A DNA stretch of 64,000 nucleotides, from contig JBKBPM010000002.1 in the NCBI GenBank assembly GCA_046293175.1, forward strand, positions 158,428 through 222,427, written 5' to 3'. The notes beneath the pieces were generated by a model. The model worked only from the letters and a program-made list of their open reading frames with translations, was not told the DNA's origin and searched no databases. The position numbers and the translations under genes are program-made. How positions within the stretch are numbered: position 1 is the first letter of the stretch; each line of letters starts with the position of its first letter. Shown in pieces: positions 3,137 through 30,536 of the stretch. The stretch comes from Minisyncoccia bacterium. GTDB lineage: Bacteria; Patescibacteriota; Minisyncoccia; Phycocordibacterales; UBA918.

Positions 3137-3180
3137 ACAGACGCGCGACCATTTGTGTGGTCGCGCGTCTGTTTGTATTT
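3137..3180. terminator. Bidirectional intrinsic terminator hairpin (15-bp stem ACAGACGCGCGACCA/TGGTCGCGCGTCTGT)
   Basis: Perfect inverted repeat directly at the 3' end of pilB, followed by T-rich tract. Confidence 0.6.
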
Positions 3181-4924
3181 AGACTATATACTTACTGATG
3201 TCGATTTCTTCATCTGACGCTGGCGGTAGGTCTTTAGTTCGTCGTACATTCTGAAGATCAACCACACGCTCGAGTTCATCAATTGTCGTGACACCAGCGA
3301 GTACCTTAATCATACCATCTTCCGCCATACTCGGAATTTTTTGTGGAGCAGCTGCATCAAGAATCATGACTTCACGAGGATCACGAATGACAATTTCCTC
3401 TACCGCATCATCAATAATGATTGCTTCAAATACACCCACTCGACCTTTAAAGCCGGTACCACCACAAACATCACAGCCAACACTTTCATAAATCGTTACT
3501 CCATCTGGGATTGTTACTGGTTCTGGATAATGAGCGAGGGTTTGTCGCATAATAGTTACTTGTTCTGGTGTTGCCACTACCGCTTTTTTACAGTGTGAAC
3601 AAAGGACACGAACGAGTCGTTGTCCGAGCATTACGTTAACTGAACTTCCGATAATACGTGGATCAACACCGAGGTCGATAAGGCGAGGGAAGCCACCAGC
3701 CGCACTGTTGGTGTGTAGTGTAGAAAATACCAAGTGACCAGTCTGGGCTGCGTGAATAGCGGTTTCGGCTACTTCACGGTCACGGATTTCTCCTACCATA
3801 ATGATGTCAGGGTCTTGACGGAGAATGGCACGAAGACCAGAGGCAAATGTGTAATCGGGTCCGATTTGGGTTTGGACAATACCGGTCAGTTTATATTCAA
3901 CAGGGTTTTCAATAGTGATGATTTTTTTCTCACTATCATGAACAGCCCGCAAAAATGCATAAAGGGCAGTGGTTTTACCTGAGCCAGTTGGACCGGTAGT
4001 AATAATAAGACCGTTTGGTCGCTTGAGTTCACGCTCCATCACTGCTTTAAGGTATGGGTTAAGGTCTAGTTTATCGATACTAAAACTCGCAACATTTGGG
4101 TCAAGGAGACGCATTACCATTGATTCGCCACTAGCACCGGGGATTACTGAGGCACGCACTTCAATCTCAGTTTCGCCAAAGACGAATTGAAATCGACCGT
4201 CTTGTGCTTCTTTACGTTCATTGAGGGTCATACCCGACAACAATTTGAGGCGACTCATTAACCGTCCATAGAGGTGACTGTCGATATCAGCAATATCAAG
4301 GAGTACACCATCAAGACGATAGCGGAGTCGAATACCAGTTGCCGCTGGTTCGATATGGATGTCAGATGCCTTGAGTGCGAGGGCTCCTGCGAACATAAGC
4401 TCAAGTGTTTCAGATATTTGGCGTGGGCTGTTAACGGATGAAATTTTTGTGAGACCTTGGTGTACATCACCAATCGTTTTGATGGTACCAGCAGTCGCAT
4501 TAATCGCATCAGTATTGATATCAAGTATCCCTTTCTTACTCGCGGTGGTCATTTTTTGATCTGCGTATCGGATGAGGCCGTGTTCGATACTGGCACGAGA
4601 AGCCAAAAAGACGGAGAGGGTATAACCAGCTTGTTTCAGCTCGTGTAGCAACTGTGCCGTATTTGGTTCTTGAGGGGCCATTACTGCTACCGAGAGGTTT
4701 TGACGCGTCAGGGCAAAAGCGATGACGTTGGCCTGCCTGGCCCGAACTTCCGGCACTTTCATGAGAGCTTCGGGATTGATAGTCACACCATGAAGGTCGA
4801 TATACTTCAGCCCGTATTTTGGTGCCAAACTTTGCATCAAAGCCTCCTCACCTCGCTTGCGAAGGTCAGCGATACGTTTATTAGTATCATCATCATGGAA
4901 CTGATTCATACCCGTATTGTACAT
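3179..4924 (-). CDS. pilB: Type IV pilus/type II secretion assembly ATPase, GspE/PilB family
   Basis: 581 aa; N-terminal GspE_N-like region, Walker A GPTGSGKTT, tetracysteine CSHC..CDVCGGTG motif. Confidence 0.85.
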   Translation of the reverse strand: MYNTGMNQFHDDDTNKRIADLRKRGEEALMQSLAPKYGLKYIDLHGVTINPEALMKVPEVRARQANVIAFALTRQNLSVAVMAPQEPNTAQLLHELKQAGYTLSVFLASRASIEHGLIRYADQKMTTASKKGILDINTDAINATAGTIKTIGDVHQGLTKISSVNSPRQISETLELMFAGALALKASDIHIEPAATGIRLRYRLDGVLLDIADIDSHLYGRLMSRLKLLSGMTLNERKEAQDGRFQFVFGETEIEVRASVIPGASGESMVMRLLDPNVASFSIDKLDLNPYLKAVMERELKRPNGLIITTGPTGSGKTTALYAFLRAVHDSEKKIITIENPVEYKLTGIVQTQIGPDYTFASGLRAILRQDPDIIMVGEIRDREVAETAIHAAQTGHLVFSTLHTNSAAGGFPRLIDLGVDPRIIGSSVNVMLGQRLVRVLCSHCKKAVVATPEQVTIMRQTLAHYPEPVTIPDGVTIYESVGCDVCGGTGFKGRVGVFEAIIIDDAVEEIVIRDPREVMILDAAAPQKIPSMAEDGMIKVLAGVTTIDELERVVDLQNVRRTKDLPPASDEEIDISKYIV

Positions 4925-5443: not shown

Positions 5444-7830
5444 CCAAAAAACCTGCCCCTGAAACCCTTGTCCTGTTAGACGCTCACGCGATTTTACACC
5501 GGGCCTTTCATGCGTTGCCTGACTTCACGTCACCAAGTGGAGAACCAACTGGCGCTTTGTATGGGGTAGTAGCTATGCTCTTGCGGATTATTGAAGAGTT
5601 TAAACCAACCTACATTGCTGCTTGTTTTGACTTACCAGAGCCAACCTATCGGCACGATGCGTATGCAGATTACAAAGGGACGCGAACCAAAACGGATGAA
5701 GCACTGGTGATGCAGATCAAACGATCCTATGATATTTTTGCTGCTTTTGGTATTCCCGTCTTTGAAGTAGCTGGGTTTGAGGCTGACGATATGCTCGGTA
5801 CCATTGCCCACCAAATGAAGGAACATAAAACAATTGAAGTTGTTATTGCTTCGGGTGATATGGATACACTTCAGTGTGTAGATAAAAAGCGGGTGAAAGT
5901 ATATACCCTCAAAAAAGGCATTAATGACACCATTCTCTACGACGAGGCAGCAGTGCTCGAACGGTTTGGCTTTCCGCCAAAGCTTGTTCCTGACTACAAA
6001 GGTTTGCGGGGAGACACCTCAGATAACATTCCGGGTATCCGGGGTATTGGCGAAAAGACCGCTAGTGATTTGATTAGGCAATTTGGTAGCCTTGAGGCCA
6101 TCTACAAGGTTCTTAAAAAAGATCCAGAGAAACTCAAAACTGCTGGTATCAAAGATCGGATGATAGGTCTCTTGCGTGATGGGGAAGAGGAAGCGCTTTT
6201 TTCAAAAATGCTCGCGACCATTCGCACCGATGCACCAATTACTATAGATCTTGAAACGATGCGCTGGCGTGAAAAGCTTGATACTGAACGCATTGGCGCC
6301 CTGTTTGGTGAGTTTGGTTTTCGTACCTTAGGAGCTCGGGTCAAAAGTATTATTGGTGCGACGCTTCCGACACCTGATGAGTCTACATTTGGGGCGAGTA
6401 ACGTGAGTCACGAGCAGTTAACTCGACTCCAAATCTATCTTTGGCTGCTTGAGAGTGAGCGTACCAATGCATCCCTTTCAGATATTATCGACTATGGTCG
6501 GGCGTACCTTGGTACCACTGAACCCACTACTATTGAAACCGCGCTCGAGGCACGGCTCAAAGAGGAAGGGACCTGGCGTGTGTACGAAGAAATCGAGGCA
6601 CCTCTGATACCGGTCCTTGCGTACATGCATGAGGTGGGAATTTCACTTGATGTGCCGTACCTGAAGACGCTCTCAGTAAAAATGCACGACGAACTCACCA
6701 AGCTCGAAACCGCGATTTATGAAGCAGCAGGGCAGACCTTTAATATCAATTCTCCAAAACAGCTGGGAGATATCTTGTTTGATACTTTAGGATTAAAACC
6801 AAAGCAGCAAAAGAAAACGGCGGGTGGGCAACGTTCAACCAAAGAGTCTGAACTCGAGAAGATGCGCGATATGCATCCGATCATTGATTACATTATGCGG
6901 TATCGGGAATTACAGAAATTGGTATCGACCTACATCGATAATCTCCCGACCTATGTGGCAAGTGATGGCCGGGTACACACTACCTTCATTCAAACTGGGG
7001 CCGCGACCGGCCGTATGGCGTCACAAAATCCAGGTCTCCAAAATATCCCGGTACGGACCGAAGAGAGTCGAGCTATTAGACAAGCTTTTGTTGCTACGCC
7101 GGGGTACACACTCGTGTCAATCGATTACTCACAAATCGAACTGCGGGTAGCGGCGATTCTCTCGCGTGATGAAAAGCTCATCGATATCTTCAAGCGTGGG
7201 GAGGATGTGCATACGGGGGTCGCTATGCGCGTCTTTGGGGTGACGGCAGAAGAAGTTACGAAGGACATGCGCCGCAAAGCTAAGGTGATCAACTTTGGTA
7301 TTCTTTATGGTATGGGCGTTAATGCGCTGCGGGGTAACCTCGGTGATGATACAAGTCGGGAAGAAGCCCAACAGTTCTACACTGCTTACTTTAATACCTT
7401 CACCACCCTCGCCGCTTACCTTGAAGACACTAAAGCCGCGGCGCGACGTGATGGGTATACAAAAACCCTTTTTGGTCGTCGTCGTCATTTTCCGGGTATC
7501 AATTCAGGTGCACCCTTTATTCGCGCCATGGCCGAACGCATGGCGATTAATGCACCAGTCCAGGGTACGGCAGCCGATATGATGCGGGTAGCGATGATTA
7601 ACATCTACACCCGTCTTACACTTGAGAATAAAACTGATATCGTCCGCATGCTCCTCCAGGTACACGACGAACTCGTTTTTGAGATTAAAGATGAGGTGCT
7701 CGCCAAAGAAATTGGTGTGCTTAAAGCCGAGATGGAAGCGGTACTTGCTGACTTTGAGACCTACGGAGTACCACTGACTGCTGAAGCTGCAACCGGAAAA
7801 AATTGGGGGGAGTTGGTACCCTACAAATAA
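5440..7830 (+). CDS. polA: DNA polymerase I (5'-3' exonuclease + polymerase domains; no obvious 3'-5' exonuclease domain)
   Basis: 796 aa; 5'-3' exo N-terminus, family A polymerase motifs (RRxAKxxNFGxxYG, QVHDELV); start overlaps tsaE stop (ATGA). Confidence 0.9.
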   Translation: MTKKPAPETLVLLDAHAILHRAFHALPDFTSPSGEPTGALYGVVAMLLRIIEEFKPTYIAACFDLPEPTYRHDAYADYKGTRTKTDEALVMQIKRSYDIFAAFGIPVFEVAGFEADDMLGTIAHQMKEHKTIEVVIASGDMDTLQCVDKKRVKVYTLKKGINDTILYDEAAVLERFGFPPKLVPDYKGLRGDTSDNIPGIRGIGEKTASDLIRQFGSLEAIYKVLKKDPEKLKTAGIKDRMIGLLRDGEEEALFSKMLATIRTDAPITIDLETMRWREKLDTERIGALFGEFGFRTLGARVKSIIGATLPTPDESTFGASNVSHEQLTRLQIYLWLLESERTNASLSDIIDYGRAYLGTTEPTTIETALEARLKEEGTWRVYEEIEAPLIPVLAYMHEVGISLDVPYLKTLSVKMHDELTKLETAIYEAAGQTFNINSPKQLGDILFDTLGLKPKQQKKTAGGQRSTKESELEKMRDMHPIIDYIMRYRELQKLVSTYIDNLPTYVASDGRVHTTFIQTGAATGRMASQNPGLQNIPVRTEESRAIRQAFVATPGYTLVSIDYSQIELRVAAILSRDEKLIDIFKRGEDVHTGVAMRVFGVTAEEVTKDMRRKAKVINFGILYGMGVNALRGNLGDDTSREEAQQFYTAYFNTFTTLAAYLEDTKAAARRDGYTKTLFGRRRHFPGINSGAPFIRAMAERMAINAPVQGTAADMMRVAMINIYTRLTLENKTDIVRMLLQVHDELVFEIKDEVLAKEIGVLKAEMEAVLADFETYGVPLTAEAATGKNWGELVPYK

Positions 7831-9818: not shown

Positions 9819-10292
9819 ATGCGGTATGTCATTCTCCATAACATTCGAAGTAAATACAACGTTGGTGCTATTTTTCGTACCGCTGATGCGGCGCGAGTGA
9901 CAACACTTTTTCTTACCGGATATACACCAGGTCCGAAGGACCGTTTTGGTCGGGTTGACCAAGAAATTATGAAAACCTCGCTTGGTGCCGTGGAGACAGT
10001 TCCGTATGAGCATGCCCCCACCGTCGAAGCTGTGGTAGAGAGGCTACAGCGGGAGGGGGTGGAAATTGTGGCTGTAGAGATTGCACCCGGAAGTGTCTCT
10101 CTCTACGATTATCAACCTAGACGGGATGTGGCGTATATATTTGGAAATGAAATCGAGGGTGTACCAAAAAGCGTGTTAGCGAAGGTTGATCGTATTCTAG
10201 AAATCCCAATGGGTGGGATGAAAGAGTCACTTAATGTATCTGTGACGGCTGGAGTGGTATTATTGCATCATCCGTATGATGTCTCGACTTAA
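9819..10292 (+). CDS. SpoU/TrmH-family RNA 2'-O-methyltransferase
   Basis: 157 aa; SPOUT motifs (IFGNE..GVP, EIPM.G...SLNVSV). Confidence 0.8.
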   Translation: MRYVILHNIRSKYNVGAIFRTADAARVTTLFLTGYTPGPKDRFGRVDQEIMKTSLGAVETVPYEHAPTVEAVVERLQREGVEIVAVEIAPGSVSLYDYQPRRDVAYIFGNEIEGVPKSVLAKVDRILEIPMGGMKESLNVSVTAGVVLLHHPYDVST

Positions 10293-11763
10293 GATTTTTT
10301 TTGATTGGTTGGTGGATCATCCGCGTTATGCGGGGATGATAGTCGGGGTGGGGCTCGGATCAGCTTTTGTATGGCCACTTGCCACACCATTTGTCATGGT
10401 GTGTTTATTTTTGGCGGTGTATCTTATTGAACGAGTTCCACTAACAGTCCTCCCGACAGTCCTTATGCTGGTCTTTGGCATAAAGTCGCTTATCGCCTTA
10501 TCGTGGTTTTGGAGTACCTACCCGATTTCATGGTTATTTGAATTAGCACCCAGTACGCAATATATTGCTATATTTTTTTATTGGACCAGCTCCGCTTTAT
10601 GGTTGTCATCAGCTGGGTTGATATTGGCGCTGTTGTGGCGGTTTAGTCCATTGCGGTATCGTCGGTATTTACTGCCAGCAGTATGGGTCTTGGCAGAATA
10701 TCTTGGGGCAGTTGTTTTTTCGATTTTAACTGCAGGTCCGGGATCATATATCACCGGCGCCTTTTCGTTTGGACATATTGGCTATCTTTTTCCGTACCTA
10801 ACACCAATTGCAGTATGGGGTGGGGTATATGCGGTCGGCTTGATTGGACTTATATTGGTGGTGATTATATATGACTACTTCACCACTAAACGACTGTTCC
10901 GTTTTGGGGTGATGATATGTATGTTACTAATAATCATAGCGGGGTCAGTTTTGTACCGAGTACCAGCAACACCATTACCAGTCGTGGTCGCAATTAATAC
11001 TACTTTTCCGGCTGCCACCAATCAAGAGACGCGGCAGGCAGCGCTTGATGAGATGATGAAGGTAGCGGTTAGTTTGCAGCCAGAGTACATTATCTTGCCA
11101 GAAGACTCACGGTATCTCTATACATACAAATCTGATCAGTTGGGAGCTGCTGTTGCGGTAGAGGCCTGGCAAATCCTTCATGCTACCAGTACGGCAATGG
11201 TGATTGATAGTGGTCGTACCACCGATGAAGTAACCGGTAAGATCGTGGCGCGGGCATTTTTATGGGGTACCAGTTCGAGTTTATACACAGCCGATAAACA
11301 GTACTTGGTACCCCAAGGGGAGTACATGCCGTCACTCTATGCATTTGTTTTACGTTTTATTGGGCTTGGTGTAGTAGCTGACGCTTTATCAGAAACCATT
11401 AACTACACTTCAAGTCGGCGTGTGGTGGCAGCGGAGGCCTTACCGTATGTCCCTAACCTCCTTTTTTGTTTTGAGAGTGTCAGTCCGCTGGCAGCTAAAC
11501 GACTGATTGCAAATCGATCAAGTGATTTTATTGTGCACCCGATGTCACATAGTTGGTTTAATGAACCGCGCGTATTGTGGCGACAGCTCGAGACCATGCT
11601 TCGCTATCAGGCGGTGTTTGCGCGTACGCCGATTGTGAGCGTAGGGAATGAAATCCGCGGTCAGGTGTACCAACCAAATGGTGAAATAGAAACATATACC
11701 ACCATTGCTACATTTCCCTTTGGAACTATTGATAGTACCCCGGCGGCACGAGTGGCCAACTAG
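10276..11763 (+). CDS. lnt: Apolipoprotein N-acyltransferase-like (Lnt-like): N-terminal polytopic membrane domain + C-terminal CN-hydrolase-like domain
   Basis: 495 aa; ~7 N-terminal TM helices followed by soluble domain of nitrilase/CN-hydrolase size; architecture-based call. Confidence 0.5.
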   Translation: MMSRLKIFFDWLVDHPRYAGMIVGVGLGSAFVWPLATPFVMVCLFLAVYLIERVPLTVLPTVLMLVFGIKSLIALSWFWSTYPISWLFELAPSTQYIAIFFYWTSSALWLSSAGLILALLWRFSPLRYRRYLLPAVWVLAEYLGAVVFSILTAGPGSYITGAFSFGHIGYLFPYLTPIAVWGGVYAVGLIGLILVVIIYDYFTTKRLFRFGVMICMLLIIIAGSVLYRVPATPLPVVVAINTTFPAATNQETRQAALDEMMKVAVSLQPEYIILPEDSRYLYTYKSDQLGAAVAVEAWQILHATSTAMVIDSGRTTDEVTGKIVARAFLWGTSSSLYTADKQYLVPQGEYMPSLYAFVLRFIGLGVVADALSETINYTSSRRVVAAEALPYVPNLLFCFESVSPLAAKRLIANRSSDFIVHPMSHSWFNEPRVLWRQLETMLRYQAVFARTPIVSVGNEIRGQVYQPNGEIETYTTIATFPFGTIDSTPAARVAN

Positions 11764-11766
11764 TTG

Positions 11767-13035
11767 TTACAGACGAGCCAGTTCTTCTTTTACTACCTCA
11801 GCATCACTCCACACTTGTCGTGTGTTATTTGGTCCCATGATATATGGATCGGTCCCTTTACCTGAAATAAGGACATACCCACCTTCAGGTGCCATAGCAA
11901 GCGCTGCACGGATAGCCTCACGTCGGTCCATAATAATGGTGAGTTTACTTTTGTCGTCTATACCTTTGGCCATATCGTCAACAATCTTGCGTGGGTTTTC
12001 ATCGTACGGATCTTCGTTAGTGAGGATAACCTGATCACAGTAGTGGGCAGCAATACTACCCATCTCGGGTCGCTTCCAGGTATCTCGACCACCACCGGTG
12101 TTACCGAGGATACACACTTTAGGAACATTGGGGAAAGCTTCGTAGAACTGCTTAAGTGAATCAGGGGTATGGGCGTAGTCCACCACGGCAGTCACAGCCT
12201 TTTTGTCTTTGCTGCTGTGGAATTGTTCAACCCGGCCATGGACAGGTGGTAGGGAACGAAAAGCCCGTTCGATAGTGCTCAAATCAACACCAAGTGCCCG
12301 AGCCAAGGTGGTAGCAGCAAGTGCGTTGTAGACATTAAATAATCCAACGAGCGGAACGCGAATCGTAGTGTTTTCTATAACCATAGTGACACTCTCTTTT
12401 TGTAACGTGTACAACGACACATCACTCAGTCCGTAGCCAATTTTGTGTTCAACATCAAAATTAAGGAAATCGACTCCATGCTCATTATCGGTATTGGCAA
12501 TAAGGTAACGTGGCCGCTTCTTTGAACGAAAGACTGCTCCAGCAATACGGAGCTTGGCATTTTTATAATTTTCAAATGACCCATGCGACTCGATATGCTC
12601 CGGACTGAGATTGGTGAAAATGAGGGCATCAAACTCAATAAAGCGGTGACGGAATTGTTTGGCTCCTTCGGAGGTCATCTCAAGTACGACATGCGTACAG
12701 CCGGCATCAGCGGCCTTACGCAAAAATCGCTGGACGAAGAAACGCCCCGGGGTGGTCATCTTAAATAGATTCTTTGTCTCTTCGTCTCCAATCATAAAGC
12801 GGATGGTGGAGAGAGAAGCGACTTTAAACCCATGGGTGCGTAGGAGATGAGCGGTCATTTCAGTCACGGTGGATTTACCCTTGGTGCCAGTAACCGCAAT
12901 CACCGCCAGATGGCGGCTTGGATGGCGATACCAGACTGCACCAGTGTAGGCGAGGAGAAAGTGATAAAGCGGGCGGACCTGTTGTAATAGGGTTTTGGGA
13001 ATAAAACGCTTGAGACGATACAAGATTGAGTCCAT
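11767..13035 (-). CDS. Mur ligase family protein (MurE/MurF-like UDP-MurNAc-peptide ligase)
   Basis: 422 aa; ATP-binding VTGTKGKST motif and Mur ligase middle/C-terminal domain pattern. Confidence 0.8.
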   Translation of the reverse strand: MDSILYRLKRFIPKTLLQQVRPLYHFLLAYTGAVWYRHPSRHLAVIAVTGTKGKSTVTEMTAHLLRTHGFKVASLSTIRFMIGDEETKNLFKMTTPGRFFVQRFLRKAADAGCTHVVLEMTSEGAKQFRHRFIEFDALIFTNLSPEHIESHGSFENYKNAKLRIAGAVFRSKKRPRYLIANTDNEHGVDFLNFDVEHKIGYGLSDVSLYTLQKESVTMVIENTTIRVPLVGLFNVYNALAATTLARALGVDLSTIERAFRSLPPVHGRVEQFHSSKDKKAVTAVVDYAHTPDSLKQFYEAFPNVPKVCILGNTGGGRDTWKRPEMGSIAAHYCDQVILTNEDPYDENPRKIVDDMAKGIDDKSKLTIIMDRREAIRAALAMAPEGGYVLISGKGTDPYIMGPNNTRQVWSDAEVVKEELARL

Positions 13036-13135: not shown

Positions 13136-14083
13136 ATGCTGGGCTATGTTATTAATAAAATTGCCAGTCTACTCATTCCAATAGTGGCCATAGCGGTGGT
13201 GGTTGCACTGGTGCCTGTGCCGCAAAGTTGGACCTTACTCCTCGTTCTGGTGTCGCTGCTTGGGTACACCCACTATTTCATTGGTGCCTACTACCAACAT
13301 CAAGCTTGGCGTCGTCGTGGCATGTATAGACGTTTTTTATATAGATTTACACTACTGAGTGTAGTTTCAGTTGGATTGGTAGTTTTGGCAATCTTGAATG
13401 ATCTCCTTTGGTTAGTAGCAATTTTGACCATTCCATACTTTGTTTGGCATGGGTATGAAAATGAACATACACTCTTCACTCGTGCGACCGGTCAGCAGCT
13501 GTCTGTGTGGTTACTAGGGGGTATTAGCGCCGTCGCTGTTGGAGCGACCATTGATGCCTTTCGGCATACGAGTGCCAACTTCTCTTATTCACTTATCTAT
13601 ACAGCGGGACTCATCCCAAAATTTACAGGTACATTGGCAGAGCTGGATTCGTATTTGTACTTCGTTGGTTTTGGTCTAATGTTAGTGGGGAGTATGGCAA
13701 TTTGGTTCGCTACATTCAAACGCTACTCCAGAGCCAATGTTTTTTGGAGTGTAGCATCAGCTACTGCACTTATATGGTTTTTTATTGACAATCCACTGCC
13801 ATATATTTGGCTATTTGTATTATTACTCGGGTACCATTTTCTCACGTGGGGAATTCACTACGGAGTCGTTTTTTGGCCACAAACAAAAAAATTCTTTAAC
13901 TACCTCATGGTACATGGTCTGGTGGTGGTTGGGGTAGTAGTAGTTTCTATGGGTATTGGTTTGATTACTAGTCAATTTCCACTGGGTTTACTGAATAGTG
14001 AATTCTTTTTGACTGCCACACTTGTGCATATCTCGACTTCATTCTTGAACGACAACTGGTTACAAAAAGCCCTCGGGTTATAA
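13136..14083 (+). CDS. Hypothetical polytopic membrane protein (~9 TM)
   Basis: 315 aa, highly hydrophobic, no motif. Confidence 0.55.
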   Translation: MLGYVINKIASLLIPIVAIAVVVALVPVPQSWTLLLVLVSLLGYTHYFIGAYYQHQAWRRRGMYRRFLYRFTLLSVVSVGLVVLAILNDLLWLVAILTIPYFVWHGYENEHTLFTRATGQQLSVWLLGGISAVAVGATIDAFRHTSANFSYSLIYTAGLIPKFTGTLAELDSYLYFVGFGLMLVGSMAIWFATFKRYSRANVFWSVASATALIWFFIDNPLPYIWLFVLLLGYHFLTWGIHYGVVFWPQTKKFFNYLMVHGLVVVGVVVVSMGIGLITSQFPLGLLNSEFFLTATLVHISTSFLNDNWLQKALGL

Positions 14084-14153
14084 CCAACGTGTATAATATA
14101 TGTAAGAAATATCAGTTGATATTATCGGTACATTACTAACATAATTTTATCAT

Positions 14154-14963
14154 ATGGAACCAGAGATTGAAGGACGTCTCGTGAGCGACCATAAAGTGAT
14201 ATCTCGCCGTACATACAAACGGATTGGAATAACTTTCGTTGGCCTCTGTTTCTTGGTGGGAGCTCTATACACTGGGTATATGTTTTATGCGGCGCCAACC
14301 ATTCGTGAAGATAAACTATGGCAAGAGTTTGAAGCCAAAATAGCTGAAATAGAAGCCAATCCCCCAGCCTTTGAATTCATCGTTGTACCAAATGCTCTCG
14401 AAGCTATTTCTCTCCCAGAACGTATCAATCAAGATCCTGAAGAACTAAAGACTGAGTTCTTGTTGGCTCAAGCCAAAACCTCTCGCGTTAATGAGGAGCC
14501 GCCTACTATCTTTGATATGCCAGTTGGAGAAACTACGTATATCGAATACATCAATAATCTTCCGGTAGAGTTGCAAGAGACGCTGTTCCAAATGCACGAC
14601 GAGTTGCGGGCCGTAACCAGGTCGCTTGGTACGATGTATGAGCAGGTGCCACTAGCCGAGCGTATCGGAGAAGGTGATCAAGTAGCCTACAAAGACTTAC
14701 TGACTCCAGAGAAAGACCAACCACTGGTCTACCCCAGTCTTCGTGTGGTTGAGGCAGAGTTCATTCACCAAGTGTTAGCCACCCAGTTCCCAACAAATGC
14801 GCCTTTTTACCAGGAATATGTGAACTCATACATCGCAGATGGAGTGGGATATGGGTACTATTCTGCACTTGAGGCTGATGTAGCTAAAATGGTGGTAAGT
14901 GATTACCTAGCGGCCGCAAGACAAAATGCCTCTACAGCCGCAGTGTTACAATCATTAGAATAA
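14154..14963 (+). CDS. Hypothetical single-pass membrane-anchored protein
   Basis: 269 aa, one N-terminal TM (ITFVGLCFLVGALYTGYMFYAA), acidic soluble domain. Confidence 0.5.
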   Translation: MEPEIEGRLVSDHKVISRRTYKRIGITFVGLCFLVGALYTGYMFYAAPTIREDKLWQEFEAKIAEIEANPPAFEFIVVPNALEAISLPERINQDPEELKTEFLLAQAKTSRVNEEPPTIFDMPVGETTYIEYINNLPVELQETLFQMHDELRAVTRSLGTMYEQVPLAERIGEGDQVAYKDLLTPEKDQPLVYPSLRVVEAEFIHQVLATQFPTNAPFYQEYVNSYIADGVGYGYYSALEADVAKMVVSDYLAAARQNASTAAVLQSLE

Positions 14964-14967
14964 AGGT

Positions 14968-16752
14968 ATGATATTCACTCTAAAACTTGGTTCTGCATTA
15001 ATAATTATTGCAAGCCTCAGTATATTTGGACTCATTCAGCATGTTGAAGCGGGAGGCGGTGGAGGAAATAGTAATGGTGGAGGAAATAGTAACTCACGGC
15101 CGGCCGCAAGCCCCACATATAATTGGAGTAGAGCAGCTGCAAATGCTACTACTCAAGCCTATAACAACTTAGCTCGGTCACTCAATCGTAATTATACGTA
15201 CAGTACCCGTACAACATATAACTCAACGTATGGTTGGGGTTACACAACAGTAAGAAATGTGCCTGAGCGGGGCGGTGGCAATAACATTAATTTTGGTAGA
15301 GGTATCCCAGACACTCCATCAACAACTTGTGAAAATCAAAACCTCACAACGATTGATATATTTTTTGTTCCTGCCGGTGCACAACCAGCGCCTGGTAACA
15401 CTAATCCTTCAACACAAGGGGTTTCCTTAGCAGTACTCACTTCTAACCCATATCAGCGGCATATAATTCCCAACAATGAACTTGAGGTTGGAGTCTTGTA
15501 TGATCCAATAGTGCAGGTACGAAATTACGCTTTAAATTGGATGCCGAGCACTTGTGCCCCTAGTCCAGCGTCTGGAGCACGAGGCTTTCGTTTAATTCCA
15601 ACCGTGCACGCAGGTGGTGGCAGTAGTGACAGGGGTGCGACACCGCAACCAAACGACTACCCCAATAACTTCCGGACCCAAGCCCCATTTGGCGCAAATG
15701 GCTCGTTCCCAATTCGGGCTCGCATTGATGTAGGGAATAACAATACCTATGAGTGGGAACAGTACCTCAACGCTCTAGGCCCAATCGCTAATGGTCGAAG
15801 TATATTCGTGCGTTTGCCGTCGTTCTCGACACCTGAAGGTGGTACCCATACAATCGAAGTTGTTACCGATATCCGCCACAATGTTGATCCGGGACGTGGC
15901 TGCTTTGCTGCCAGTACACCAGCCTCAGCCGGTTGGGGTTGCGTCCGCGAAACGAGTGAGACTGATAATGATCGCAGTGAAGCCTTCACGACTCGTGTTG
16001 GTAATGCGAGTTACCGACTGGCGGTTGATGTTTCAGATGTTACCGTGCGAGCTGGCTCAATGCTGACCGAGGTACCATTTGTGGGTATCAACACTGGCCT
16101 GGCAACCATTAATGACTATCGATACCGAGTAACCATAAACGGCGCAACTTTCGCGAGCACCACTCGCACCACCAGTCTCGCTCCATCAGCCAGAGAGACT
16201 GTCCGCGCTACTGGTAGCTACACCGCACCTATGACACCAACATCATTACCACTGATAGTTTGTGCTCGGATCGCTACCAGTACCGAAGTATGTGATACCG
16301 CTCGTCTTATTGTGACCACCCCACAGTGTTCAGATACTCGAGATAATGAACCAGACGGCACCTTAGATGCTAATGATCCAGGTTGTTATGGTGACCCACT
16401 GGATCCAACCACCTATGATCCAAACGATGATAACGAAGGGGATATGGCTACCACCTCACCATCGGTAACTATCGAATTCAAACCAGTAGTGAATCCAGTT
16501 CGGTACAATACCGGTGCAGCACTCGAGTACGTGATCAATGGTCCCGCCCTAATGTCCTGTGTGGTAACTGGTGGGGAAACGAATAGTCCTATCATGCATA
16601 CACCACCTCGCACCACCGGACAGATAACCACCGCGCCCGTGACTAGTACCCAACAGTACACACTCCGCTGTACCGTCAGTGTTGGTGGCAGTATCCTCCA
16701 GTTTGAGCGTACAACTACAGTAGATGTCTTGCCACAAATTCAAGAAACGTAA
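14968..16752 (+). CDS. Large secreted protein, Gly/Asn/Thr-rich, with conserved C-terminal Cys-containing domain shared with 17670..19931
   Basis: 594 aa; signal/anchor MIFTLKLGSALIIIASLSIFG; GGGGGNSNGGGNSN low-complexity; C-terminal ~65 aa aligns with C-terminus of next large protein (C..G...H....TTG.I.T.P.TSTQ.(F/Y)TL.C). Confidence 0.6.
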   Translation: MIFTLKLGSALIIIASLSIFGLIQHVEAGGGGGNSNGGGNSNSRPAASPTYNWSRAAANATTQAYNNLARSLNRNYTYSTRTTYNSTYGWGYTTVRNVPERGGGNNINFGRGIPDTPSTTCENQNLTTIDIFFVPAGAQPAPGNTNPSTQGVSLAVLTSNPYQRHIIPNNELEVGVLYDPIVQVRNYALNWMPSTCAPSPASGARGFRLIPTVHAGGGSSDRGATPQPNDYPNNFRTQAPFGANGSFPIRARIDVGNNNTYEWEQYLNALGPIANGRSIFVRLPSFSTPEGGTHTIEVVTDIRHNVDPGRGCFAASTPASAGWGCVRETSETDNDRSEAFTTRVGNASYRLAVDVSDVTVRAGSMLTEVPFVGINTGLATINDYRYRVTINGATFASTTRTTSLAPSARETVRATGSYTAPMTPTSLPLIVCARIATSTEVCDTARLIVTTPQCSDTRDNEPDGTLDANDPGCYGDPLDPTTYDPNDDNEGDMATTSPSVTIEFKPVVNPVRYNTGAALEYVINGPALMSCVVTGGETNSPIMHTPPRTTGQITTAPVTSTQQYTLRCTVSVGGSILQFERTTTVDVLPQIQET

Positions 16753-16771
16753 AAGTTAAAAATAGCAGATA

Positions 16772-16803
16772 CCAAAAAAAGCGCCAGGTTGGCGCTTTTT
16801 TTG
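16772..16803. terminator. Intrinsic terminator AAAAAAAGCGCCAGGTTGGCGCTTTTTTT
   Basis: GC hairpin with flanking A/T runs after 14968..16752. Confidence 0.55.
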
Positions 16804-16828
16804 GTATCCACGAATTTAGTTTTAGAAA

Positions 16829-17665
16829 GTGTCCGTCTTTGTAAGAGCATGCCATAATATGATTATGGATTCGTTACAACAAAAATTCGGCGGAGAACCG
16901 GATATTATTACCCCAAAAAGACCTTGGCTCCCGTTGGTAGGACTCGGCATTATGAGCTTAATCGGATTTGGAGTGATTGGTTACTGGTGGTTACAACCAG
17001 CTCCAACTCCAATAGTGAAAGACGTTGTTCCCGTGACACTGACAGTTGAAGAGGTGGAGTCATATCGTGCGTCATTACCACGTACCTTCAATGGTGCTGA
17101 ACCGGTAGTAGAAGGATCCACTTCGGAAGAACTTATTGTGCCAACAAAACAAACGTTGACAGATCCGATGATTGAAAATTTTGATGAGAATAACAATGCT
17201 GGGAATGTCACTAATGATGTAGCGGTATCGTATGTGCCACCAGCTGAGGCGGTAGGTGTGCCGGTTACGATTGCGATGGGTAGTGACGCGACGGCCAACA
17301 TGACCAGTGTCATGCCAAACAACACCTCATATGTCGAGGGAGACGTTACGATTAGTGACGTTACTATTACACAGCCAGATCGTAGCGAAAAGACTCCTTT
17401 TTCGGCCACCGGTGTTGTTAACGGTACTGACGACAATTTACAGAAAGTGAGCGTTTCAAGTAACGGGGAAGTGATTGAGCTTGAGGTGTCTGGTGGATCT
17501 ATTAAAACAACTGATGGTCGATTAATTCCATTTTCGGCATTACGTACAAACGATATTGTTGAAATTTATGGACAACGATATAAGGACGTCCCAGTGGTAG
17601 CTGAAGTCACCATAACTTTGATTGGTGTCCAAGAATTTATTCCGGCGATTGATATTGGTGTATAA
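16829..17665 (+). CDS. Hypothetical single-pass membrane protein
   Basis: 278 aa; TM LPLVGLGIMSLIGFGVIGYWW, Thr/Val-rich extracytoplasmic part. Confidence 0.5.
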   Translation: MSVFVRACHNMIMDSLQQKFGGEPDIITPKRPWLPLVGLGIMSLIGFGVIGYWWLQPAPTPIVKDVVPVTLTVEEVESYRASLPRTFNGAEPVVEGSTSEELIVPTKQTLTDPMIENFDENNNAGNVTNDVAVSYVPPAEAVGVPVTIAMGSDATANMTSVMPNNTSYVEGDVTISDVTITQPDRSEKTPFSATGVVNGTDDNLQKVSVSSNGEVIELEVSGGSIKTTDGRLIPFSALRTNDIVEIYGQRYKDVPVVAEVTITLIGVQEFIPAIDIGV

Positions 17666-17669
17666 ACAT

Positions 17670-19931
17670 ATGAAAAAGGTAATAATTTTAGCTCTGGCCC
17701 TACTATTCCTTCAAACTGCGTCACCAGCGGTAGCGGCTGTCGGCGGCTGGGAACACTTTCAAGCCCAGCAATTAGGACGCCATAATGGTGATTGTTCATC
17801 AGGGCAGTCAAAGCGCGACTTCATTCTCAAAGACTATAGTAATAATGACATTAACCCGCAAGGGTTACGAATGAAAGCACAGGTTGTTGGTCGTAATGAT
17901 GGTAATGGTGCTTGGGAGGTTACAAGAGAAACTGAGTGGGTAACCAACACAAACATTAGTCCGGCTGTTTGTTACAGTCCCGATACCGAGTCTACCCGAG
18001 TAGTAGTAGAAGCGGCCGATAGTTCACCGTACATGCCCTTTTACGGGGCTGGTTGGTGGGGGGAAACGGCAGCTTCACGTGAGGTTGAGCGTGGTCGCTA
18101 TCAGCGCGGCGTGGTCCACCTAAAAGCCAAAGGGGTACCCACAATCGATCTTATGGCACCCGCTGAAGTGTTCCTACGAACCAGTACGCCAACTTTTATC
18201 GTCCGCACTAATGATGCCCCATTGCTCTACAATGCTACCGCAATGTCGAGAACTTTTATTGGGTTTTGGCAAAACAACCGTCGTACTGCTCGTTTTGCTC
18301 AAGAGCACGGTGGGCTCAGTGGAGTACGGCAATTTACTCCAGGCAATTTTCCAGATGGTTTATATACCTGGACAGTAGTGCAACAGCTCAACGGTGTAGC
18401 CGATGTTGAGCAAATGCTCAATACCTTCGATCGGTCATGTGGTGCTGCCGTGGAGCGTGTTGATTATGCACTTCGAGAACAGGGAGGTATCAGGCCAATA
18501 AACCCTCGTGATATAACAGCGAGTGTCGTCGTGCGAAATAGTAGAACGCAGGCAATTGTCAGTGAAACCCCATTTGCTGCTGGCTCGACAGTTTCTCCGG
18601 CGGTTTGTTACGACCAGAGTACTCAGAGCATCGGTTTAAGATTACAGGTTGATGCAAATGCTTACTACTTCAATGGTGGTACTGAGACAGTACGGCAAAG
18701 TTCACAAGTAACCGCAAACGCCCAAGGAAAATTGTACTTCCGTATCATTGCCGAACTTCCTGCTCGAACAAGACAGGTTACTGAACCAATCAATATGCAA
18801 TTTACTCCAATCGGGAACATCAACACCCTCAAAGACTTGTATACACAACGGTGGAGGTGGGTTCCGGGGACTGGTATTTCAGAAACCAAACAGTTCTATA
18901 TTGATAGAACATTACCAACCTTAACAGCCTCATTGCAGGCTGCTACATCAACAGCTGGATCGCAGGCGATTGCTACCGTAAACGCTCGTGATATGGGTTC
19001 AGGTCTGCGACAAATTAATATGGTTTTCACACCTGTTAGCGGACAAGGAAGTGTTGCCACAGTAACAATTCCATTTGCAGTCGGAACCGGCATCATCGGT
19101 GGTCCAAAAGATACTCAAGTGGTTACTTGGCGTACAAATCTCCGACCAGGCACTACGTACCGCTACGTTGCTACTGCTGTTGATGTGGCCGGCAACACAA
19201 TGAGTACTGCTGCCCGCACCTTCACTGCGCCAACACTAACGCCTGATATTGCCTTCCAAAACTTCTTTATCCGCAGCACGTGTACACCTGAGGCAGTGAA
19301 CTTTGTGGTAGATGCATTTTGTCCATTAACCACCGTAGCTATGGCGATTCGTAATACCAGTAATGGTGTTATCAACCGCGGGGTGAATATTCCGTATCGT
19401 ATTGAGTACCGCTACCCAGGTAATGACACGGGTGTTTGGACTGAGGTTTATCGTGGCAATTATGCGGGTGGCTTAGAAGCCCAGGCTACTACACCGGTAT
19501 TTAATGTCGCTATAGCCCGAAGTATGCGGGGAAGTGGACAGCTACGCGCCTTGGTCAATATGGCGCCCCAAACGAACAATTCGATTGGTGAAACAGAATT
19601 CAGTAATAACACCAGCCCAACCCGTACCATTGTATTTGCGACAACGCCGCCGACGCTCACCCTCACTACCGATCGTAGTACTGTCAGAAGTGGACAAACG
19701 GTCACTCTAACGTACAACATTGAGTCACCACAGCCGTTTACTTGTGAATTGCGTGGCAATGGTACACCAACGGTTATTCGTCATGAAGGTGGAGACACGA
19801 CTGGTTCAATCCAAACTACTCCTATCACCAGTACTCAGACGTTTACCCTATCTTGTGTCAGTGATATGGGTGGTGAACCAACGGAGCAAAGTATAACGGT
19901 TGAAGTGATACCGTTTATTGATGAGGTCTAA
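17670..19931 (+). CDS. Large secreted protein, paralogous C-terminal domain with 14968..16752
   Basis: Start moved to MKKVIILALALLFLQTASPAVAAVGG (classic signal peptide) inside ORF 17622..19931; 753 aa; shared C-terminal domain. Confidence 0.65.
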   Translation: MKKVIILALALLFLQTASPAVAAVGGWEHFQAQQLGRHNGDCSSGQSKRDFILKDYSNNDINPQGLRMKAQVVGRNDGNGAWEVTRETEWVTNTNISPAVCYSPDTESTRVVVEAADSSPYMPFYGAGWWGETAASREVERGRYQRGVVHLKAKGVPTIDLMAPAEVFLRTSTPTFIVRTNDAPLLYNATAMSRTFIGFWQNNRRTARFAQEHGGLSGVRQFTPGNFPDGLYTWTVVQQLNGVADVEQMLNTFDRSCGAAVERVDYALREQGGIRPINPRDITASVVVRNSRTQAIVSETPFAAGSTVSPAVCYDQSTQSIGLRLQVDANAYYFNGGTETVRQSSQVTANAQGKLYFRIIAELPARTRQVTEPINMQFTPIGNINTLKDLYTQRWRWVPGTGISETKQFYIDRTLPTLTASLQAATSTAGSQAIATVNARDMGSGLRQINMVFTPVSGQGSVATVTIPFAVGTGIIGGPKDTQVVTWRTNLRPGTTYRYVATAVDVAGNTMSTAARTFTAPTLTPDIAFQNFFIRSTCTPEAVNFVVDAFCPLTTVAMAIRNTSNGVINRGVNIPYRIEYRYPGNDTGVWTEVYRGNYAGGLEAQATTPVFNVAIARSMRGSGQLRALVNMAPQTNNSIGETEFSNNTSPTRTIVFATTPPTLTLTTDRSTVRSGQTVTLTYNIESPQPFTCELRGNGTPTVIRHEGGDTTGSIQTTPITSTQTFTLSCVSDMGGEPTEQSITVEVIPFIDEV

Positions 19932-19938
19932 CTAATTA

Positions 19939-19980
19939 AAAAACAAAACACCCCACTTTGGTGGGGTGTTTTGTTTTTTA
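19939..19980. terminator. Bidirectional terminator AAAACAAAACACCCCACTTTGGTGGGGTGTTTTGTTTTTT between convergent genes
   Basis: Perfect GC-cored hairpin with symmetric A/T tracts. Confidence 0.6.
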
Positions 19981-20541
19981 ATTGAGTTGCCGCAGAGCTT
20001 CTCCGACAATTGCACTGGTCGAATCACCAGAACCAATCGCGTCAAGTACCTGCCGTACTGACTGTGGGTTGTACCCGAGCGTGACGAGTGTATCAAAGGC
20101 GTCTTGGTAGACGGTACCGCGTACCGGTGCAGTTGGTACAATTGTCGTATCAAGTTTGTCTTTGAGTCCGAGGATAATTTTTTCGGCCGTTTTTTTTGAA
20201 ATACTCGAGAGTTTTGTCAGGTGTAGTGGGTCTTCAGCAGCCACCGCTTCAACAATTAATGTACGATCAGCCTGGTCCATAATTTGGAGAGCACTTTTTG
20301 GTCCAATACCGGAGATGGTAAGGAGGAGTTCAAAGAGGTCGAGATCTTCACGGTTCACAAATCCATAGAGGTCTAAGGCGGTTTCGCGTACTGCCAGGTG
20401 CGTATAGAGACGAATGATTTCCCCTGGAAGGGTAATTAGTCGGTGGGTGACCGCTACCATATACCCAACGCCACTTGAGGTCTCAATAATAAGTGTGTTA
20501 CCGCTAGTCTCGACGACAGTGCCAGAAATGAGGCGAATCAT
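19978..20541 (-). CDS. ruvA: Holliday junction DNA helicase subunit RuvA
   Basis: Start taken at MIRLISGTVVE (canonical RuvA N-terminus) within ORF 19978..20583; HhH motifs ISGIGPKSA. Confidence 0.85.
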   Translation of the reverse strand: MIRLISGTVVETSGNTLIIETSSGVGYMVAVTHRLITLPGEIIRLYTHLAVRETALDLYGFVNREDLDLFELLLTISGIGPKSALQIMDQADRTLIVEAVAAEDPLHLTKLSSISKKTAEKIILGLKDKLDTTIVPTAPVRGTVYQDAFDTLVTLGYNPQSVRQVLDAIGSGDSTSAIVGEALRQLN

Positions 20542-20633
20542 AGTGTTTCTATTGTACACTAATCTGCGGCGGATGGTCGCCATTGATTTATTTTGTCAAA
20601 TACCGTATAGTACGCACCACATAACAAATCAAT

Positions 20634-29384: not shown

Positions 29385-29441
29385 AAATAGTTGGGGGTTT
29401 TGGCTGAGATTTTTAACCCACCTACCCGTATAATAGAAGGA

Positions 29442-30536
29442 ATGTCGATTAGTTCGTTACTCGCGCGCTATTTACCGCCGCCCCAGTTCCTTTCTATGCC
29501 AAGCCTTGGGGTGGATATTTCTGATACCTCACTCAAGTACGTACAGTTTGGTGATGAAAAGCGGGGGATGCGCCCGCTCAAAATGTGGGGAGAAATTGAT
29601 ATTCCTACTGGGGTACTCGATCGGGGGTATGTCCACGATCAAAAGAAGTTGGCTGAAGTACTTAAAGAGTGTAAGCAAAAGACTAATGCTACCTTTGTGC
29701 GAGTTTCTCTTCCAGAGGAACGAGCGTACCTATTTGAAACCGAAATAAAACGTTCAACTCCGACCAAAGAGATCCGTAGTCTCCTCGAATTTCGCCTAGA
29801 AGAAAACGTTCCCATCCCAGCCCGGGAAGCCTTTTTTGATTTTGATATCCTCAAAGGGGAGACGACTGATAAGACCGTACGTGTAGTGGTAGCAGCGTAT
29901 GCACGTGAGACCATCCTCAATTATTTTGATGCCTGTAATGAAGCTGGACTCATACCACTCTCTTTTGAAGTAGAGGCGCAGGCGATGGTGCGTTCCGTGT
30001 TACCAACTGGCGCACGTGGTGCCCATATGTTGGTGGACTTTGGGAAGACGCGTACCGGGGTGGGGATAGTGCTTGATGGCACTTTGATGTACACCTCCAC
30101 TATCGACTTTGGTGGGAATCAACTTTCAGAGGTGTTACGTAAGGTACATGGACAAATTACTGAAGGGGAGCTCACCACCATCAAAAATACCCAAGGACTC
30201 ATTAAGGGGGTGCACGATACACGTAGCTATGATGCACTTATTTCGACTATCTCGGTGATTAAAGATGAACTTTCGTCTCGGATTCAATACTGGCACGGTG
30301 GTAATTACAAAACCGACTCCCGTCGCATTCAGTCAGTGACGCTCTGTGGTGGTAGTTCAAATCTCAAAGGCCTGCCGGAATACTTTACCGAGACGCTTGG
30401 TATTCCGACCTCACGGGCGAGTGTCTGGCAAAATGCTTTTCGAGTTGATGACTACATCCCACCAGTGAGTGTCCGATATTCGTATGGCTATGCTACTGCG
30501 ATTGGTCTCGCGTTGCCGTCACAAAATCCTCTATGA
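29442..30536 (+). CDS. pilM: Type IV pilus assembly protein PilM (actin-like ATPase fold)
   Basis: Start chosen at ATG preceded by GAAGGA SD and TATAAT; LGVDISDTSLKYVQF N-terminus and actin-like motifs typical of PilM. Confidence 0.75.
   Translation: MSISSLLARYLPPPQFLSMPSLGVDISDTSLKYVQFGDEKRGMRPLKMWGEIDIPTGVLDRGYVHDQKKLAEVLKECKQKTNATFVRVSLPEERAYLFETEIKRSTPTKEIRSLLEFRLEENVPIPAREAFFDFDILKGETTDKTVRVVVAAYARETILNYFDACNEAGLIPLSFEVEAQAMVRSVLPTGARGAHMLVDFGKTRTGVGIVLDGTLMYTSTIDFGGNQLSEVLRKVHGQITEGELTTIKNTQGLIKGVHDTRSYDALISTISVIKDELSSRIQYWHGGNYKTDSRRIQSVTLCGGSSNLKGLPEYFTETLGIPTSRASVWQNAFRVDDYIPPVSVRYSYGYATAIGLALPSQNPL

Follow-up and report, generated by a model that had tools for sequence, protein, structure and literature searches.

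A widespread, uncatalogued C-terminal domain and tail on two predicted surface proteins encoded between murE and ruvA in a Minisyncoccia bacterium

We analysed a 64-kb stretch of DNA from a Minisyncoccia bacterium (contig JBKBPM010000002.1; hereafter the window, whose numbering we use throughout) and found that two large predicted exported proteins encoded there, p3 and p5, end in the same two-Cys domain and the same free tail. On sequence grounds, the domain and its tail are a widespread, uncatalogued C-terminal tag of exported proteins. Each of the two proteins, which we call passengers, is encoded directly downstream of a single-pass membrane protein, its partner (p2 for p3, and p4 for p5). 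We read the locus as two partner-passenger surface modules in which the tag may serve as a common surface-retention or sorting signal that is read through the free tail, with the cognate partner tethering or assembling its passenger, and we hold this reading at about even confidence. C-terminal beta-sandwich tags are known already, and we rate the uncatalogued family and its terminal motif as what is new here. A further gene, p1, encodes a polytopic membrane protein. Genes p1 to p5 were taken from the open reading frame (ORF) listing and all lie on the + strand. The source organism belongs to Candidatus Paceibacteria, which is the class Minisyncoccia of Patescibacteria, or Candidate Phyla Radiation (CPR); a small-genome lineage had been supposed in an earlier interpretation made from the DNA letters alone (the sequence-only reading).

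Results

p3 and p5 end in the same domain and tail

In a BLASTP comparison, p3 residues 511-593 aligned to p5 residues 672-752 at 40% identity (E 4e-11), and the rest of the pair gave E >=8. The sequence-only reading had described an alignable C-terminal domain of about 65 amino acids (aa). The similarity was recovered, nowhere else in the pair, and the domain is longer, at about 85-92 aa. The consensus drawn up in that reading, C...G.G...H...TTG...P.TSTQ.[FY]TL.C...V.V.P.I.E, agrees with our 16-member alignment, in which the invariant positions are V, C, C, P at position -6 from the C-terminus and E at position -2. A tblastn search with the p3 and p5 C-termini in all six frames of the window returned these two copies only (E about 2.5e-11), and the next match had an E of 0.07. 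The p3 domain spans aa 500-594 (16465-16749, + strand), contains a VR pair and C531 and C568, and ends VDVLPQIQET; the p5 domain spans aa 662-753 (19653-19928, + strand), contains a VR pair and C692 and C729, and ends VEVIPFIDEV. In both proteins the stop falls six residues on from the invariant Pro, so that the tails are LPQIQET (16729-16749) and IPFIDEV (19908-19928). We defined the tag family by a rule: a domain of about 90 aa that runs to the C-terminus and has V-R close to its start, exactly two Cys with a spacing of about 37 residues, G-x-G following the first of them, and a tail of the form V-[ED]-V-[VIL]-P-x-x-[QED]-E-[IVT]-COOH. Both p3 and p5 belong to the family so defined.

The tail marks terminal copies of a large domain family

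A tag profile built from the 16 sequences was used in an exhaustive search of 1.84e9 representative proteins (clusters at 50% identity). At E<=1e-3 the profile had 1078 matching clusters, of which 151 reached E<=1e-10. We inspected 172 proteins, which were the best 150 of the 1078 matches together with 26 p3/p5 homologues, partly overlapping. The tag ended at the last residue in 131 of the 172, and those proteins ranged from 131 to 1547 aa in length; the remaining 41 carried the domain as internal tandem repeats, with up to 13 copies. Every terminal copy (131/131) had exactly two Cys, and the terminal consensus was V-[ED]-V-[VI]-P-x-[IVA]-[QE]-E-[IVT]-COOH. Of the 131 copies, 126 had Pro at -6 and 129 had Glu at -2; position -3 was Q, E or D in 124, and the final residue was I, V or T in 114. 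By information content the two Cys ranked highest (4.32 bits), followed by E(-2) with 4.21 and P(-6) with 4.06. The motif P..[QE]E[IVT] was present near the end of 98/133 terminal copies vs 0/283 internal tandem copies. A DNA pattern encoding VEV[VI]PxxQEI followed by a stop gave 52 in-frame matches in metagenome contigs, 47 of which were the tag domain by hidden Markov model (HMM). A search of 2.9 M viral contigs with the same pattern gave no match, and this form of the tag was thus not seen among phage sequences.

The proteins that carry the tag differ widely outside it. Their passenger regions fell into at least 15 groups that did not align with one another at E<=1e-5 over 40% of their length (49 groups under a strict threshold), and across passenger groups the tag domain outside the tail was 25-35% identical. 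An N-terminal hydrophobic segment was present in 89 of 106 complete-looking tag proteins. A hydrophobic 19-mer in the last 60 aa was found in only 1/106, and therefore the family has no C-terminal transmembrane (TM) anchor. The sequence-only reading had suggested a common anchoring, sorting or secretion signal. That the shared module is a general one is borne out by the profile matches and the frequency of terminal copies; anchoring or sorting is suggested by position and conservation, and a C-terminal secretion signal is unlikely, as 89/106 proteins already have N-terminal Sec-type signals.

AlphaFold2 models of p3 and p5, built on homologue alignments, predicted an Ig-like beta-sandwich for the tag domain, with seven strands in p3, the kind of fold that the sequence-only reading had proposed to look for. 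Presumably, each domain holds one B-F disulfide. The predicted local distance difference test (pLDDT) score was low for the tail (about 52 in p3 and <50 in p5) on a confidently predicted domain body, which fits an exposed linear motif on a folded scaffold. When 40 diverse tag sequences were compared with Pfam-A and NCBIfam, no consistent family emerged, and there were stray Ig_3, Ig_2 and Ig_7 matches above E 0.004. Relatives with internal repeats matched no Pfam family across the repeat, a profile search of the PDB found no sequence relative of the tag, and we found no description of the tail motif in the literature. The similarity thus persisted in profile alignment and led to no catalogued Ig-like family.

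Two large predicted exported proteins carry the tag

The p3 gene (14968-16752, + strand) encodes a 594-aa exported multi-beta-sandwich protein, as judged from the ORF listing, homologue alignment and AlphaFold2. Its N-terminal hydrophobic segment is a putative signal peptide (aa 1-28, 14968-15051, + strand) that ends HVEA and is followed by GGGGG; the family consensus round the putative cleavage site is V.AG..GG. Beyond the oligo-Gly run lies a Gly/Asn-rich, low-confidence stretch that reaches about aa 124. A predicted CARDB-fold beta-sandwich follows at aa ~336-450 (15973-16317, + strand), where CARDB PF07705 scored below the Pfam gathering score. Between this domain and the tag is an acidic, Cys-flanked, Asp-rich linker (aa 452-497; 16321-16458, + strand; PQCSDTRDNEPDGTLDANDPGC...), in which C454, C473 and D/N positions are invariant and which matched NCBIfam acid_disulf_rpt at E 3.4e-4, below the cut-off. 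The mean pLDDT of the p3 model was 61, with about 90 for aa 336-450, about 92 for aa 500-589, about 52 for the last residues, and <50 for the Gly/Asn-rich aa 21-127 and the acidic linker, aa 453-497.

The Gly run is a recurrent trait of the p3 family: in the window protein (aa 1-45; 14968-15100) and in homologues P0009-P0026, P0030, P0041 and P0068, a putative signal-peptidase site (V-x-A|G) is directly followed by 4-13 Gly or Gly/Ser, so that the mature proteins would begin with oligo-Gly. Among tag-bearing proteins at large, 17/106 have a Gly run within the first 80 aa. N-terminal oligo-Gly is the classic sortase nucleophile. We found no link between the oligo-Gly N-terminus of the p3 family and a sortase.

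The p5 gene (17670-19931, + strand) encodes a 753-aa exported, all-beta, multi-domain protein with an N-terminal signal-like segment, a putative signal peptide of about aa 1-23. Its model was all-beta throughout (mean pLDDT 74.7), with the tag body at about 68-87 and aa 750-753 below 50. The p5 C-terminal domain matched Pfam Ig_3 weakly (E 0.039). A segment of about 140 aa is present in p5 and in homologues P0001 and P0002 and is not present in the relatives of about 610 aa, P0003-P0006. This segment gave weak BLAST matches to the N-terminal domain of P0003-P0006 (p5 aa ~257-334 against aa ~30-110). These sequence matches suggest that the N-terminal domain may be duplicated internally in p5.

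By fold comparison, p3 and p5 are predicted strings of Ig/FN3/CARDB-like beta-sandwiches, that is, generic adhesin-like arrays with no enzyme fold. This agrees, at the level of predicted models, with the adhesin-like large surface proteins of the sequence-only reading. The p3 and p5 N-terminal domains had no specific match, and scans of p1-p5 against Pfam-A, NCBIfam and PHROGs gave nothing above cut-off.

Partners and passengers form exchangeable modules

The partner of p3 is p2 (14154-14963, + strand), a 269-aa single-pass (N-in) membrane protein with a predicted TM segment at aa 26-44 (14229-14285). The partner of p5 is p4 (16865-17665, + strand), a 266-aa single-pass membrane protein with a TM segment at aa 21-39 (16925-16981). 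The start of p4 follows the public gene call (ATG); an alternative GTG at 16829 would give 278 aa. Each partner gene stops 4 nucleotides (nt) before the start of its passenger gene. Neither p2 nor p4 had a match in Pfam, NCBIfam or, by profile sequence search, the PDB.

The five ORFs described in the sequence-only reading (polytopic, single-pass, 594 aa, single-pass and 753 aa) are present and co-directional. Their spacing is short, with 70, 4, 112 and 4 nt for p1/p2, p2/p3, p3/p4 and p4/p5, as that reading had stated. Its five-gene cluster does not hold as a single unit. There is a promoter-like site between p1 and p2, and a strong bidirectional intrinsic terminator of textbook form (A7-GCGCC-aggtt-GGCGC-T7) lies between p3 and p4 at 16765-16811. 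A second bidirectional intrinsic terminator, read in the sequence as A-rich, CCCCAC-tttgg-GTGGGG, T-rich, lies between p5 and the convergent ruvA at 19938-19979. Because strong terminators follow p3 and p5, p1-p5 are not one operon despite the close spacing. The locus is better described as two translationally coupled two-gene modules, p2-p3 and p4-p5, and a separate p1.

Relatives of p3 formed 18 clusters and relatives of p5 formed 8, all from metagenomes or metagenome-assembled genomes (MAGs), and the named ones were Patescibacteria or Parcubacteria. Their contigs shared an order of polA ... SpoU-type methylase, 495-aa membrane protein, murE (- strand), a slot, ruvA (- strand) and rpsT. The slot between murE and ruvA is variable and holds one to three partner-passenger modules in relatives: one module without p1 in L002, p1 with one module in L005, p1 with two modules in the window, L003 and L007, three modules with p1 in the middle in L009, and two modules in L011, where p1 lies beyond murE, on its other side. 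The distance from partner to passenger was at most 43 nt in all loci.

The single-pass partners belong to two unrelated families, p2-type and p4-type. A p2-type partner preceded a p3-type passenger in 8/8 modules, and a p4-type partner preceded a passenger with a p5-type N-terminus in 4/4 modules, including that of a hybrid, P0008. This hybrid passenger (L003 10001-11890) joins a p5-type N-terminal half to a p3-type C-terminal half made up of CARDB domain, linker and tag. Its partner (L003 9167-9997) is itself chimeric: the cytoplasmic/TM segment (aa 10-51) is p2-like, and the ectodomain is p4-type. We regard P0008 and its chimeric partner as evidence of cassette recombination inside the murE-ruvA slot. 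Because P0008 pairs a p4-type ectodomain with a p5-type N-terminus, partner type tracks the passenger N-terminus and not the shared C-terminus. The co-variation of partner and passenger N-terminus, as read from these sequences, is suggestive, and since the loci are related it is not statistical proof.

Several other features of these loci may be recorded. Tandem passengers of 528 and 532 aa in L011 (13187-14773 and 16241-17839) are identical over their C-terminal ~400 aa and differ at their N-termini; they represent either a very recent duplication or a MAG assembly artefact. The p4 C-terminus (17630-17665) ends VQEFIPAIDIGV and its L003 orthologue ends VQEFIPAIDLGL, both of which resemble the p5 tail VEVIPFIDEV (19899-19928). 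Two other p4-type partners lack a p5-like end, and the likeness of the p4 and p5 ends may be chance.

Tag genes also occur elsewhere. In 17 metagenome loci, single-pass neighbours were frequent, upstream or downstream, and heterogeneous; there is no background rate for this frequency, and so we make no claim from it. L019, L028, L034 and L046 (also L027 and L038), from other lineages, had a recurrent order of fusA (EF-G), a tag protein of ~415-450 aa, a single-pass protein of ~105-155 aa and a fourth protein. The tag protein in these fusA-context loci has GYAWS-type repeats, and the fourth protein has an N-terminal TM segment and a 'W..PT..PP..N...PIN' motif. On one 486-kb contig, L012, tag proteins of 724 aa (5628-7802) and 434 aa (10001-11305) are encoded 2 kb apart.

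p1 is a His-rich membrane protein of a small family

The p1 gene (13136-14083, + strand), as given in the ORF listing, encodes a polytopic membrane protein of 315 aa that lacks Cys and has six or more hydrophobic segments. Across 17 homologues, with identity down to 29%, six His (46, 105, 144, 234, 260 and 298) and the residues Q54, N109, E110, N287 and N305 were invariant. The motifs are GYTHY..G..YQ, WHGYENE, DAFRH and YHFLTW, and the invariant His and polar residues are located in or near TM segments. From its sequence, the p1 residue pattern looks like that expected of a metal-dependent membrane enzyme of an undescribed type, beside cell-envelope genes (murE and the gene of a 495-aa membrane protein). 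A word-indexed search gave a family of 25 clusters at 90% identity, and a scan of genome contigs found two loci only. There was no consistent Pfam match among 17 family members at E<=1 and no match in NCBIfam, PHROGs or, by profile sequence search, the PDB; no transporter, secretion or peptidase family was among the matches. CPBP/Rce1, exosortase and PAQR-like assignments were considered and rejected, as the motif spacings misfit, p1 has no Cys, and no HMM matched. The placement of p1 relative to the modules differs from locus to locus.

Housekeeping genes surround the locus

The five + strand ORFs are bracketed by murE (11767-13035, - strand) and ruvA (19978-20583, - strand). The remaining genes in the window are housekeeping genes: ruvC, yebC, ruvB, a PilB-like ATPase, polA, rpsT, pilM, uppS, rplS, ribonucleotide reductase, glyA and argS. 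The genes ruvC, yebC and ruvB lie at the window start (238-2696), and ruvA is 17 kb off and convergent with p5. Type IV pilus genes are near the locus and not adjacent to it (PilB-like ATPase, 3179-4924; pilM, 29391-30536), and three small ORFs without family matches follow pilM. The 495-aa ORF (10276-11763), which is kept beside the SpoU-type methylase and murE in all related loci, has a polytopic N-terminal half and a soluble C-terminal half and matches neither Pfam nor NCBIfam. It has a 'CFES' motif, which is reminiscent of apolipoprotein N-acyltransferase.

Discussion

In the reading that we favour, each module consists of a single-pass N-in membrane protein followed by a Sec-exported, adhesin-like stalk that would be built of Ig/FN3/CARDB-like beta-sandwiches. 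Sec export would come first, and in p3 cleavage after VEA would leave an oligo-Gly N-terminus. The free C-terminal tail, displayed by the Ig-like scaffold, would then be recognised by a common envelope component that keeps the protein at the cell surface or sorts it there; candidates for this component are a receptor, a processing enzyme and the wall of the cell. The single-pass protein encoded just upstream may bind the N-terminal part of its cognate passenger and so provide a module-specific membrane tether or assembly factor. A single membrane is generally ascribed to CPR bacteria, and with N-terminal Sec-type signals already present, a further secretion signal at the C-terminus would have no obvious job. 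The most economical role that is left for a tag conserved right up to its free carboxyl end is retention, sorting or assembly at the envelope. Whatever reads the tail must be far more widespread than p1, p2 and p4, the families of which were small in our searches.

One close parallel to the tag is the C-terminal domain (CTD) of type IX secretion system (T9SS) cargo, which is also an Ig-like beta-sandwich of seven strands and ~80-100 aa at the extreme C-terminus of diverse Sec-exported proteins, in that case of Bacteroidota (PMC4804311). Another Ig-like domain often precedes the CTD, and its C-terminal strand region is functionally critical (PMC4804311). Neither p3 and p5 (Pfam E<=1, NCBIfam E<=0.1) nor the 40 diverse tag sequences matched Por_Secre_tail (TIGR04183/PF18962). 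Moreover, neither a Cys pair nor a P-x-x-[QE]-E-[IVT]-COOH tail occurs in the CTD, which acts as a signal for translocation across the outer membrane and is removed by PorU in Bacteroidota with an outer membrane and Por/Gld machinery. Patescibacteria are generally regarded as lacking an outer membrane. No Por components were present among the window ORFs scanned.

WxL/csc clusters of Lactobacillales/Enterococcus offer a parallel in gene organisation, in that their large exported proteins vary in the N-terminal binding domains, have a C-terminal domain in common and are encoded with a single-pass partner (PMC1534035, PMC10599100). The membrane-anchored WxLIP (DUF916-DUF3324) has been proposed to hold these proteins at the surface, and the hosts are monoderm (PMC1534035, PMC10599100). 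The tag has no Pfam match to the WxL domain (PF13731) and no WxL motif, and there is no Trp in the C-terminal 92 aa of p3 or p5. In addition, the TM helix of WxLIP is C-terminal and WxLIP binds the WxL domain that its clients have in common, whereas p2 and p4 have an N-terminal TM segment, and partners of the p2/p4 type co-vary with the variable passenger N-terminus and not with the shared tag. We thus place the tag in neither the T9SS nor the WxL group.

Sortase, exosortase, archaeosortase and rhombosortase signals resemble the tag in being short conserved C-terminal signatures on diverse exported proteins of one lineage (PMC1569441, bioRxiv 10.1101/2023.06.07.544157). Such signatures (LPXTG, PEP-CTERM, PGF-CTERM and GlyGly-CTERM) exposed dedicated sorting enzymes through phylogenetic profiling (PMC1569441, bioRxiv 10.1101/2023.06.07.544157). 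In all of them the motif is followed by a TM helix and then a basic tail, whereas the tag motif is the last six residues on a folded domain and has no leaving group longer than one residue, so that we do not class the tag among these signals. NCBIfam sorting-domain models did not match the tag. We also considered LPQIQET as a sortase-like signal and rejected it, as no TM helix or tail follows the motif.

The sulfur-carrier protein SoxY (2nnc and 2oxg) was among the fold-level matches, and we treat it as an analogy only. In SoxY, a conserved, mobile, extreme C-terminal peptide on an Ig-like beta-sandwich is the functional element offered to partner enzymes. For bacterial Ig-like/CARDB adhesin stalks (SiiE BIg, Lap repeats and CARDB PF07705), no Pfam model reached its cut-off for p3 or p5. 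High expression of secreted proteins that contain Ig-like, PKD and peptidoglycan-binding domains is reported for epibionts of the class Paceibacteria (PMC10936435).

Several points weigh against a retention or sorting signal. No receptor or processing enzyme for the tail came to light, and no recognisable sortase or PDZ protease was present among the window ORFs scanned. Some members keep an apparently uncleaved N-terminal TM anchor, for example the 724-aa L012 protein, and in such a protein a C-terminal anchor would therefore be redundant and the tag would be at the distal end. A structural role, or one in ligand binding, would also be consistent with the conserved tail. The link between partner type and passenger was drawn from related, syntenic loci and one discriminating hybrid. 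Finally, few members of the tag family carry organism names, all of them Patescibacteria.

A more specific proposal, which we put forward only tentatively, is that the tag is the cargo label of an unrecognised Patescibacteria sorting or attachment system, in which a dedicated and widely conserved envelope factor reads the tail and the single-pass proteins act as module-specific co-receptors. This factor might be a carboxypeptidase/transpeptidase that would release the last residue and couple the invariant Glu to the wall or to a protein, or it might be a PDZ-type receptor. The result would be that many adhesin-like proteins are shown on the epibiont surface.

Other explanations give the tag no part in sorting. 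It could be the distal functional end of a stalk that is tethered at its N-terminus, either a tip that binds a host or partner ligand or a site of oligomerisation, for example by strand swapping, with the tail in the interface. The adhesin-like folds suit this, as do the N-terminal TM segments that some members seem to keep and a cognate partner that may tether the passenger at its N-terminal side; in addition, the C-terminal Ig-like CTD of the T9SS dimerises by C-terminal strand swapping (PMC4804311). We nevertheless find a distal tip rather doubtful. A host-binding tip is expected to vary by lineage, whereas no other part of the domain is as well conserved as the tail over the 15 or more passenger groups, and conservation that is fixed to the free carboxyl end suggests that a conserved component of the cell itself recognises it. 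Alternatively, p3 and p5 could be ordinary surface proteins, the tag being an Ig-like repeat inherited by duplication or cassette recombination and the tail a structural cap with no sorting role. The same domain does occur internally as simple tandem repeats, with as many as 13 in one protein, it has weak similarity to Ig_3, Ig_2 and Ig_7, and recombinant genes exist, namely the hybrid P0008 and the two L011 genes that are identical over about 400 C-terminal aa. Yet the p3 and p5 C-termini both have the tail and are only 40% identical, and therefore did not arise by recent gene conversion. The tail also lies outside the confidently folded core, it is confined to terminal copies (98/133 vs 0/283 internal), and its information content equals that of the disulfide Cys. 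For these reasons we consider a structural cap unlikely.

The sequence-only reading had also suggested p1 as a dedicated exporter or anchor, and in a broader form of this idea p1 would act on the shared C-terminal domain of both passengers as exporter, sortase or anchor. p1 adjoins modules in 6/7 distinct loci, and it is strongly conserved; six His and several polar residues, within or close to TM segments, are invariant, as might be expected of a membrane enzyme. Yet a module occurs without p1 in the L002 slot, p1 lies beyond murE in L011 and between modules in L009, and a promoter-like site parts p1 from p2. Its family has 25 clusters vs 1078 for the tag, although these come from different searches (word-indexed at 90% and exhaustive at 50% identity) and are not directly comparable. 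p1 carries no transporter signature and matches no transporter, peptidase or other family, and because it has no Cys it cannot perform sortase or exosortase-type chemistry. With its variable presence and position and its small family, p1 is a very improbable handler of the tag.

Few CPR/Patescibacteria have been cultured, most of the proteins that they export lack annotation, and little is known of how they display proteins on their surface and attach to hosts. The tag would provide a simple rule, based on sequence, by which candidate surface proteins can be listed in any genome with the tag. It would also be a handle for finding the reading machinery by phylogenetic profiling, as PEP-CTERM led to exosortases. 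With its interchangeable modules and one natural hybrid, the murE-ruvA slot offers a compact experiment of nature on the protein parts that must co-evolve. We see the main value of the tag as a testable lead into CPR surface display.

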